Below are positions 10,856 through 11,440 of a stretch of 64,000 nt of DNA, in pieces. Source of the stretch: a virus (lineage: Duplodnaviria; Heunggongvirae; Uroviricota; Caudoviricetes). Location: IMG/VR virus record IMGVR_UViG_2585427970_000001. One strand, given 5' to 3'. The notes below the pieces were generated by a model. That model saw nothing but the letters and a program-made list of their open reading frames with translations, was not told where the DNA came from and did no database searches. The translations under genes and the position numbers were made by a program. The number at the start of each line of letters is the position of its first letter. Position 1 is the first letter of the stretch.

Positions 10856-11440
10856 ACACAACAGGTAAGGGTATTTTGCGACGTCGGAGATCGCCGTGCT
10901 TGGCAGAGGGTTCGAATCCCTACGAAGTACCCTTACCGTTGTGATGAAGTGCAGCTCTTTGAAGCAACCAGAAGATAAGCATCTGGCTTCACAACATAAA
11001 CCGCAGGAACGACCAATAAACGGTAGTCCGTATGGAGAACACCCCGTTGAGGAAGAGGCCTGGCCGGAACCGTAACCGGCACTACAACGTTGAGAACACT
11101 GGCGTAACGGGGTCATATCCCAATCTACGAATAAATGTTGCGTTGCAGCGTGACAACCAGTGTTCTCAACATTGTGGTGAATGCACAGGCTGATGTGCCG
11201 CAACTACAGTAGCGCGCTTTGTGGGGCTTGCTACAACCCTGTGTCGGAGTTCAGCACCGACCATCACAGTTTGATTCTCTGGCATGAGCATAACGCTGAA
11301 ATAAGTCCAGTCTGGTGCGGTCTGATCACCTGCCGTTAGCTCCACGAAACGGAGCACGTAACAGGTAAGAGCATTCTCCTGTAACGGGTTCATATCCCAA
11401 TCTACAGGTCCACCAAGAATGCTCTTTCCGTTGCGGTGAA
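10856..11440. other. structured non-coding region: tRNA-like element plus two paralogous stem-loop modules
   Basis: No convincing ORF; a 10-bp acceptor-like stem (GGTAAGGGTA/TACCCTTACC) enclosing a GGTTCGAATCC T-loop motif; two copies of GTAACGGG(G/T)TCATATCCCAATCTAC (11104 and 11391) each inside a perfect inverted repeat (11089-11102/11158-11171; 11367-11379/11416-11428); each module followed by a TTG(T/C)G(A/G)TGAA(G)TGC box. Confidence 0.3.

Follow-up and report, generated by a model that had tools for sequence, protein, structure and literature searches.

A modular plus-strand array of structured RNAs between tRNA-Thr and tciA in a P1-like phage-plasmid, and its candidate RNase III stalks

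The presence of RNase III hairpins in phage transcripts is an old idea. To judge by the title of their 1988 work, Daniels et al. reportedly mapped RNase III processing sites of the lambda late RNA; Hartmann et al. are said to have found in 1995 that the precursor of the P1 C4 RNA is an RNase P substrate; and the T4 tRNA cluster encodes small stable RNAs of unknown function (species 1 and 2, or rnaC and rnaD) that are cotranscribed and processed with the tRNAs. In the Qin prophage, RNase III generates the 5' end of the 190-nucleotide (nt) DicF RNA (PMC10448788, which cites Faubladier et al. 1990), and the prophage-encoded small RNAs (sRNAs) STnc100 and PasD were detected by Hfq RIL-seq, an RNA-RNA interaction method (bioRxiv 10.64898/2026.05.13.724894). 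Here we compare these systems with an interval between the tRNA-Thr gene and tciA in IMG/VR virus record IMGVR_UViG_2585427970_000001, of which we analyzed a stretch of 64,000 nt (the window). The window is that of a P1-like phage-plasmid, and its positions 10776-11552 are ~98% identical to P1. An earlier note, made from the sequence alone, had singled out positions 10856-11440 as a probable cluster of small structured RNAs. The interval is a plus-strand array of non-coding structured RNA with the order S1-beta-X-S2-alpha-Y-S3-gamma, made up of stalk hairpins (S1 to S3), closed domains (beta, alpha and gamma) and linkers (X and Y):

10857-10943, plus strand: stalk hairpin S1 (outer helix CACAAC 10857-10862 / GUUGUG 10938-10943; bulged A 10863; inner helix 10864-10873/10928-10937)
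10938-10995, plus strand: beta domain (closing helix GUUGUGA 10938-10944 / UCACAAC 10989-10995, recovered by the fold)
10996-11079, plus strand: linker X, ending in hairpin CCGG-AACCGUAA-CCGG (11064-11079) just before S2
11080-11179, plus strand: stalk hairpin S2 (arms 11080-11102/11157-11179, an inverted repeat of 23 nt, 91%; fold -49.2 kcal/mol, z -5.8)
11171-11269, plus strand: alpha domain (5' closing strand AUUGUGGUG 11171-11179; junction AAU; 3' closing strand CCAUCACAG 11261-11269)
11183-11198, plus strand: alpha hairpin A, GCACA-GGCUGA-UGUGC
11199-11243, plus strand: alpha variable arm
11244-11260, plus strand: alpha hairpin B, UCGG-AGUUCAGCA-CCGA
11270-11356, plus strand: linker Y, with hairpins GGUG-CGGUCUGAU-CACC (11314-11330) and GCUCC-ACGAAAC-GGAGC (11339-11355), the latter just before S3
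11357-11435, plus strand: stalk hairpin S3 (outer helix CGUAAC 11357-11362 / GUUGCG 11430-11435; bulged A 11363; inverted repeat; fold z -4.7)
11430-11552, plus strand: gamma domain, STnc100-like (closing helix GUUGCGGUG / CACCGCAAU, recovered by the fold, z -2.0)

Each S module consists of a stalk of ~20-22 base pairs (bp), in which 6 bp and a bulged A are followed by 2 bp, a U.U mismatch and at least 10 bp, around a swappable interior that we call its cargo. The three long inverted repeats on which the earlier note had built its modules are present, at 10864-10876/10925-10937, 11080-11102/11157-11179 and 11364-11377/11416-11429. Its 14-bp and 11-bp stems proved to be perfect helices whose coordinates needed adjustment, the first to 11089-11102/11157-11170 (the noted 3' arm was off by one) and the second to 11367-11377/11416-11426 (an error of 1 to 2 nt), and their extent had been underestimated: all three stems gain six outward pairs past a bulged A (S1 and S3) or a mismatch (S2). 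The helices reach the approximately two turns (~20 bp or more, continuous or nearly so) used as the length criterion for RNase III, with 6 + 15 bp in S1, ~22 bp in S2 and ~19-21 bp in S3. On the plus strand, each hairpin folded much better than its shuffled versions (z values from -4.7 to -5.8, with 0 of 200 shuffles as good; S1, -40.8 kcal/mol and z -5.0), and the stems showed compensatory changes both between the paralogues and across phages. S3 (inner arms GGUAAGAGCA at 11364-11373 and UGCUCUUUCC at 11420-11429) matches the family pattern TGCTCTYWYCGTTGYGRTGAA exactly. S1 keeps the outer helix, the bulged A and the GGUAAG/CUUACC base, with a U-A pair in place of U.U, and S2 has arms of diverged sequence with the length and flanks of the family.

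The boxes that follow the three modules are related, as the earlier note had said (10938-10953, 11171-11187 and 11430-11445), and they are not module tails: each is the 5' strand of a helix closing one of the further domains beta, alpha and gamma, which had been missed. The 5' closing strand of each domain overlaps the last six bases of the preceding stalk, which suggests that the stalk would form first and the closing helix afterwards.

The cargo of S1 combines an anticodon-arm-like hairpin (10878-10894, with a 7-nt loop GUCGGAG) and a T-arm-like hairpin (10907-10921, GGGUUCGAAUCCC) that contains the T-loop motif GGTTCGAATCC noticed before, at 10909-10919. That this tRNA-like element is not a canonical tRNA was borne out: ARAGORN and the Rfam tRNA model called only 10780-10855 and 12298-12373, and over 10856-11560 neither ARAGORN nor RF00005 gave a tRNA match even at E <= 10. 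The cargo of S2 contains a 25-nt motif, GUAACGGGGUCAUAUCCCAAUCUAC (11104-11128), and a second hairpin; the motif, first described as 24 nt long, returns 96% identical in the cargo of S3 (11381-11405) and in other phages it reappears inside a stem that covaries (CGUA/UACG, GCGUG/CACGC and CCUGUA/UACAGG).

A hairpin of the same topology lies between ydfC and dicF in Qin (our locus L236, 1673-1758). Its stalk measures ~22 bp (7 bp, mismatch, 2 bp, mismatch, 10-13 bp), its arms, which end in GGUUGUGG, are identical to the common S arms at 14/20 and 16/20 positions, and it lies beside a small RNA in an untranslated part of a prophage operon; dicF is followed there by a gamma-type domain, as gamma precedes tciA in the window. 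Counted back 190 nt from the DicF 3' end, the RNase III-made 5' end falls at ~1746-1750 of that locus, in the 3' arm of the stalk and 9-13 nt above its base. The Qin site differs from the window in that no alpha, beta or gamma 5' strand follows its stalk, and it is at Qin that cleavage has been shown.

By homology with the Qin stalk, S1 to S3 are candidates for cleavage by RNase III. They also have the profile of RNase III stalks, being two helical turns long, lying in untranslated stretches between RNA genes and mRNAs and tolerating any interior. The reading that we prefer, with moderate confidence, is that the tRNA-tciABC-tRNA-ban transcript is divided up by RNase III stalks and closed RNA domains acting as punctuation. 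The interval would be the untranslated middle of a plus-strand operon that folds into seven autonomous RNA modules. Host RNase III would cut S1 to S3 on both arms, ~9-13 bp above the base, and these cuts would leave tRNA-Thr, beta, alpha, gamma and the tciABC mRNA as separate pieces and release the apical cargo of each stalk as a small hairpin RNA. Beta, alpha and gamma would then persist as closed multi-helix domains, each stalk forming first during transcription and the closing helix after it. A processed RNA is thus the part of the earlier note's proposal that best fits the locus; the modules are not peculiar to P1 and belong to a very widespread phage stalk family with interchangeable interiors, shared with lambda and hundreds of further phages.

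This family was delimited by a 5' CAYAAC, one unpaired base, a GGUAAGAGCA-type arm, a UGCUCUUWCC-GUUGYG 3' arm, a U.U at the third inner pair, an unrelated interior and sense orientation, a combination that is found in the window. Viral contigs were scanned with a pattern taken from the 3' arm, and the counts of stalks and interiors refer to the matches listed. S stalks occurred in at least 120 viral contigs; 89 unique stalks carried interiors of 35-176 nt that fell into 51 unrelated clusters. In the common form, CACAAC and a bulged A precede GGUAAGAGCAUUG ... CAGUGCUCUUUCC and GUUGUG, and the helix has a G.U pair and a conserved U.U mismatch. Type B, a second form (GAUGAGAGCA / UGCUCUCUUC), differs from type A by two double compensatory changes and retains the U.U. 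Stalks were also found in N4-like phages, Ackermannviridae and unclassified ~46-kb Klebsiella phages, and one stalk variant is present in 784/5426 complete E. coli genomes and annotated in none.

In lambda, a stalk at 44789-44862 stands immediately 3' of the 6S/tR' terminator, and in HK75 one stands directly 3' of the annotated Tr'. The lambda hairpin has arms of the common type (CACAAC-A-GGUAAGAGCAUUG ... CAGUGCUCUUUCC-GUUGUG, with the bulged A and the U.U mismatch) and is followed by a domain closed by GUUGUGCUG/CAGCACAAC; it differs from the P1 array in being a single copy with other cargo in a late-operon context. The lambda record J02459 has no annotated feature at 44789-44862. A sensitive search placed pieces of the array in unannotated leaders of unrelated phages, namely in Sashavirus between head and tail genes, in a P22-like phage immediately upstream of its N-like gene, in Citrobacter phage phiNP and in Klebsiella prophages between Q-like and holin genes.

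Next to the orientation data, we considered elements that act as DNA, that is, recombination linkers or miniature inverted-repeat mobile elements promoting cassette exchange. Arm sequence is conserved around unrelated interiors, the indel break points among P1, P7 and P1 isolate OP279344 lie in the repeated arms, and copy number varies among close relatives, all of which such elements would explain. The elements are nonetheless codirectional with the downstream genes in 108/122 decisive cases, and the tRNA genes within 600 nt share the element's strand in 66/66. In registers set by Watson-Crick pairs alone, G.U pairs outnumbered A.C pairs 77 to 16, counted over unique helices that are not phylogenetically independent. 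No promoter or terminator consensus was found inside the interval. Together, orientation, tRNA strand, G.U excess and this lack of internal signals indicate that the elements act as plus-strand RNA within a longer transcript. Moreover, stalks upstream of the alpha box (the sequence following the stalk, see below) differ widely in sequence and yet keep 18-23 paired positions, and a near-perfect long helix lies directly upstream of 60% of alpha boxes versus 4% of control positions; duplex energy failed to discriminate stalks (controls had a median of -18 kcal/mol), and we used the near-perfect-helix score instead. Neither target-site duplications nor an associated recombinase was seen. We regard a DNA-level purpose as very improbable, and recombination in the arms is probably a consequence of the repeats.

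The same bases invited a comparison with antitermination signals of the rrn or nut type, with a boxA-like UGCUCUUU in the 3' arm and a boxB-like hairpin. The rrn boxA is CACUGCUCUUUAAC, to which CAGUGCUCUUUCC in the common 3' arm is similar; 14 nt further on there is a GC hairpin, and beta sits at the nutL position in the P22-like phage. The boxA-like bases are paired inside the stalk, so that the conserved single-stranded boxA plus boxB hairpin of nut and rrn leaders was not found here, and the motif is absent from stalks of other sequence. The elements also occur downstream of Q-modified promoters and in virulent phages without an N-type system, and we consider antitermination most improbable.

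Three further resemblances were set aside. The bases ACACAAC / GTTGTGA depart from the RYYYAAC ... GTTRRRY of integron attC sites, and no integrase is annotated near the P1 or lambda copies, the two loci screened. A likeness to a hammerhead core was dismissed from the sequence alone. CACAACA looks like a GcvB target site, and GUUGUGAUG like a stretch of the GcvB seed; an AgvB-like anti-sRNA was rejected because the Rfam AgvB model gave no match and the bases concerned pair with each other.

Comparison of P1, P7, D6 and a second P1 isolate showed conserved arms and flanks around swapped interiors. P1, P7 and OP279344 differ by whole units, and OP279344 has one extra whole unit with break points in the repeated arms. 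In P7, the S1 arms are kept and the cargo is replaced by a different interior 20 nt shorter; the S1 cargo of P1 is also found inside a canonical lambdoid-type stalk (locus L077). P7 and D6 (L003/L004, ~1546-1632 of L004) have an 87-nt tRNA-Ser(UGA)-like gene, preceded by a CCGG hairpin plus CACCACAAC, in place of linker Y and the S3 cargo of P1, so tRNA genes and stalk modules share interchangeable slots; both also carry a segment nearly identical to the lambda late leader at 44,870-44,930. The N4-like phage IME11 (L130, 483-2569) has 2 kb without an annotated gene; this stretch includes an S stalk, an alpha box, a CCGG...CACCACAAC element and two tRNAs, besides at least two fragments, not called by ARAGORN, that resemble tRNAs and have good T-arms.

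These neighbors raise the question of whether the array is a graveyard in which decayed tRNA genes and pieces of leaders have accumulated, without function and kept by recombination between the repeated arms. Cargo does contain T-arm-like pieces, the tRNA-Ser-like gene of P7 and D6 occupies the position of other sequence in P1, the region is non-essential, and tRNA genes lie within 600 nt of 26% of elements versus 8% of random positions (an approximately three-fold difference). Helices that are maintained by compensatory change over large evolutionary distances, a constrained stalk length, a conserved orientation relative to the flanking genes and alpha loops that are near-invariant across proteobacterial classes are not expected of junk, and decay without function is quite improbable in our view.

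We then defined the alpha domain as a closing helix, UGAAUGC with the hairpin GCRYA-GGCUGA-URYGC, and the hairpin YCGG-AGWUCAGYA-CCGR followed by C and the 3' closing strand. The 64-kb window holds exactly one: the signature motifs occur once each, at 11178-11198 and 11244-11260, between the complementary flanks AUUGUGGUG and CCAUCACAG. Scanning was anchored on the alpha box, the sequence after the stalk (TGAAUGCRYAGGCUGAURYGC). In almost half of the cases, a hairpin YCGG-AGAUCAGCA-CCGG lay 48-184 nt downstream of the box and was followed by a strand complementary to the bases before it. Across 45 distinct sequences, 7/9 pairs of the closing helix changed on both sides (one pair, for example, was UA in 27, GC in 15 and CG in 1); 0/500 shuffles reached the covariation score observed, and the signal collapsed when the partners were slid by one to three columns. 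Given 26 full-length sequences, RNAalifold independently arrived at the same three helices and placed hairpin B directly against the closing helix. The loops GGCUGAU and AGAUCAGCA are near-invariant and share complementarity over 5-6 bases, and the scan patterns fixed most of their positions. In a scan of one genome per species, the matches listed came from Enterobacterales, Pseudomonas, Burkholderiales, Xanthomonadales, Halomonadaceae, Rhizobiales and others, a spread over alpha-, beta- and gamma-proteobacteria, and the closing helix covaried throughout these matches. On a Halomonas olivaria chromosome (L284, ~1139-1159), the alpha box lies between two copies of the CRISPR repeat GTTCCCCGCAGGCGCGGGGATGAACCG; it is thus a CRISPR spacer against this conserved phage RNA motif, and the sequence is phage-borne there.

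In shape, alpha resembles a tRNA. An acceptor-like closing helix is stacked on hairpin B in the T position, hairpin A is in the D-arm position, a variable arm separates them and the loops can pair with each other; array elements are furthermore enriched beside tRNA genes on the same strand. Alpha differs from tRNA in that neither the tRNA covariance model nor ARAGORN matches it, it lacks a 3' CCA, and its loops would pair by 5-6 Watson-Crick pairs and not through the T-loop/D-loop motif. tRNA-likeness is limited to some interiors, and the most tRNA-shaped object is alpha (11171-11269), not the element that the earlier note had singled out. The small stable RNAs of T4, likened here by description only, are also phage-encoded structured RNAs processed alongside tRNAs; they differ in being single genes and not a modular family. 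Alpha is expected to act either as a stable processed RNA or as a structure-specific processing signal. A bolder possibility, which we hold tentatively and think doubtful as a whole, is that alpha is an undescribed tRNA-shaped RNA class whose loops and junction are recognized by some universally conserved machine of the host, such as RNase P or a different enzyme that handles tRNAs, and that the S stalks are a general phage "RNA cassette holder" that would deliver interchangeable small RNAs, some of them tRNA mimics, via RNase III.

Part of this evidence bears on another explanation that overlaps with our preferred reading, in which cargo, alpha, beta and gamma are trans-acting sRNAs (regulators, or tRNA-shaped decoys against host tRNA-directed enzymes or defenses) and the stalks serve only for their release. 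The hypervariable cargo, with 51 unrelated clusters in the 89 stalks listed, would suit such expression cassettes, as would the gain and loss of whole units between near-identical P1 strains and the Halomonas CRISPR spacer that matches the alpha box. T-arm-like hairpins are 12-fold enriched in cargo (28 observed versus ~1 in shuffles), and this enrichment, together with the cargo motif that recurs with a covarying enclosing stem, makes a cargo function beyond that of a spacer plausible. Alpha loops that remain near-invariant from Enterobacterales to Pseudomonas, Burkholderiales and Rhizobiales suggest contact with a conserved host machine, and the gamma relatives STnc100 and PasD are prophage sRNAs in Hfq RIL-seq (bioRxiv 10.64898/2026.05.13.724894). 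On the other side, the modules have neither terminators nor promoters of their own, and the variable part of alpha is the arm in the anticodon position, which argues against a decoy for anticodon nucleases. We judge the cassette explanation to be unlikely, while taking it seriously.

The other two closed domains have relatives as well. Beta encloses GAAGUGCAG and a conserved CAACCAGAAGAUAAGCAUCUGG, and its homologues occur in Sashavirus, in the P22-like phage just upstream of the N-like gene and in many IMG/VR contigs; the closing helices compensate between phages (GUUGUGGUG/CACCACAAC versus GAUGCGAUG/CAUCGCAUC). The beta hairpin (10966-10990; CAACCAGAAGAU...CAUCUGGCUUC) corresponds to the anticodon-arm halves of a Klebsiella-phage tRNA-Gly(UCC) (L008, 2445-2470) in swapped order (CAUCUGGCUUC CAACCAGAAGAU), which may be a trace of tRNA ancestry or a coincidence.

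In gamma, the first hairpin comes directly after GAAU and the last, CUGGGAGGCACCCGG, abuts the 3' closing strand. The covariance-model search of the interval found STnc100 (RF02076) at 11432-11551, with 30.6 bits and E 2.4e-4 over model positions 31-147 of 206, which is below the gathering score of 47 and covers the model only in part; by sequence, then, gamma is a distant, partial and sub-threshold relative of STnc100. The matched part includes the closing helix and the terminal hairpin CACCNGGGAGGCACCCGGCACC. Gamma lacks 30 model positions at the start and 59 at the end, among them the 3' part in which a terminator is expected, and it is an internal segment of a longer transcript. A TerB-family gene neighborhood has been reported for the Pas sRNAs (bioRxiv 10.64898/2026.05.13.724894); that preprint prints no sequences and was used for the STnc100/TerB context only. 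Near-identical gamma domains are located upstream of terB in P7 and D6 and, in Qin, in the interval separating dicF from dicB. The Qin copy is a closed domain (L236, 1950-2085; UUUGUGAUGUGGUGAAUGCGGCUGAGCGC ... CACCUGGAGGCACCAGGCACUGCAUCACAAA) and is unannotated in RefSeq.

Linker X is 87% identical to the untranslated leader of Citrobacter phage phiNP, and the same CCGG hairpin is found ahead of stalks in Sasha and phiNP. Linker Y is 83-86% identical to the Klebsiella prophage leader between Q-like and holin genes, which there lies 3' of a tRNA-Gly, and a GCUCCACGAAACGGAGC hairpin precedes many stalks. The loop CGGUCUGAU of the linker Y hairpin at 11314-11330 (UUGAUCA in relatives) is complementary to the GAUCA of the alpha hairpin-B loop, so several loops of the array could compete for one partner.

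For the S stalks, alpha and beta, the database searches returned nothing. Rfam 15 (4227 models), run on the window at E <= 10, gave nothing over these elements except chance matches of miRNA precursors to the S2 hairpin, and no match there to Y RNA/YrlA, the small ribozymes, AgvB, AsxR, Esr41, DicF, C4, GOLLD or ROOL. At the gathering score, the 15 related loci likewise yielded nothing for S, alpha or beta, with only tRNAs and one SIB RNA elsewhere in these loci. A literature text search with conserved array strings retrieved no relevant paper, and the P22B and P22E small RNAs (PMC13397905) come from analogous leaders and are unrelated in sequence to S, alpha and beta.

The neighboring genes and the open reading frames (ORFs) across the interval are as follows:

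10780-10855, plus strand: tRNA-Thr(UGU) (ARAGORN; Rfam tRNA, 74.9 bits), its 3' end abutting S1
11589-12023, plus strand: tciA (TerB-family; ORF list and P1 annotation), the first protein gene 3' of the array
12298-12373, plus strand: tRNA (CAU), Met(CAU) by ARAGORN and tRNA-Ile2 (CAU, ileX-like) in the P1 annotation
10826-11203, minus strand: plp ORF, 125 amino acids (aa), antisense to tRNA-Thr, S1, beta, X and S2; annotated in NC_005856
11166-11393, minus strand: ORF of 75 aa covering upl (ORF list; upl annotated in NC_005856)

The interval is thus not literally free of ORFs, as the earlier note had it, and it does align formally with coding genes annotated as intact in P1, which that note had named as a sign against RNA. 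Were plp and upl genuine minus-strand genes, as their lengths and their NC_005856 annotation with predicted promoters would suggest, the hairpins would be incidental. In Pfam searches, plp matched no family and upl gave one weak sub-threshold match (PF21483, E 0.038, 14.2 bits versus a curated cut-off of 27). Moreover, plp runs antisense through 30 nt of tRNA-Thr, and its C-terminal third is unrelated wherever the S1 interior differs; its start also differs in P7, so that both ends follow the cargo. The ORF limits differ in P7 and P1 OP279344, and the 90-93 residues common to the plp versions follow from near-identical DNA. Neither a frame conserved in relatives nor family membership was found for plp or upl, and both are omitted from the later P1 record and from the P7 record. 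The constraints are RNA-structural and on the opposite strand. These results indicate that plp and upl are probably chance ORFs, and we give almost no credence to their being genes; structured RNA, and not decayed coding sequence, was the right call in the earlier note.

The order of the plus-strand operon in P1 is the C1-controlled Pban, a dicF-like region, tRNA-Asn, tRNA-Thr, the array interval, tciABC, tRNA-Ile(CAU) and ban. In the window, an IS3-family element at 9467-10776 (~), in reverse orientation and with ends TGAACCGCCCCGGG, occupies the tRNA-Asn site; it has minus-strand orfA/orfB, is common to many Stx phages and is presumably IS629-like. Its left flank resumes at P1 ~64,580 (upfB), and ~4.8 kb beside it (P1 64,581-69,424) have been lost, with upfC, uhr, hrdC, dmt, Pban and its C1 operator, the dicF-like region, a fourth stalk and tRNA-Asn. 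This fourth S-type stalk of reference P1 (NC_005856; L001, 1135-1225, ~P1 69,056-69,146), CACAACAGGTAAGGGCGCTGG ... TCAGCGTCCTTTCCTGTTGCG, lies between the dicF-like region and tRNA-Asn and is unannotated.

Several points weigh against RNase III punctuation as the role of the array. The RNase III sites of the lambda late RNA reportedly lie just beyond tR', and their identity with the hairpin at 44789-44862 is presumed. The Qin cut is located imprecisely, having been counted back from the DicF 3' end. When the whole region is folded to minimum free energy, the gamma helix forms at the expense of the outer S3 pairs, and if a downstream helix captures the outer six pairs, a stalk of ~14 bp would be left, which would be short for RNase III. 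The single-sequence fold of P1 alpha misses the closing helix, which has two G.U pairs. A pure processing role also leaves unexplained both the near-invariance of the alpha loops across proteobacterial classes and the 12-fold enrichment of T-arm-like cargo. With the insertion and the 4.8-kb deletion having removed Pban, transcription of the array in this phage is uncertain. Furthermore, the region is dispensable for plaque formation: plp and upl were both non-essential in a CRISPRi screen (PMC10695390).

Three observations seem never to have been connected: the RNase III cut in the DicF precursor of Qin, the lambda hairpin after tR' and the untranslated spacers that surround tRNA genes of phages. 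All three involve a single stalk-hairpin family whose interiors are exchangeable, and this family-level picture, in which dozens of interiors are interchangeable on one scaffold in phages ranging from P1 and lambda to virulent ones, appears to be new. So does the alpha domain, which is absent from Rfam, has a real chance of being a new RNA class and is a good candidate for one with a conserved host partner. For annotation, plp and upl, part of the P1 annotation since 2004, are probably not genes. For phage biology, the stalk family allows one to ask by what means long non-coding leaders are processed in phages and whether the interiors that are exchanged have functions as small RNAs.

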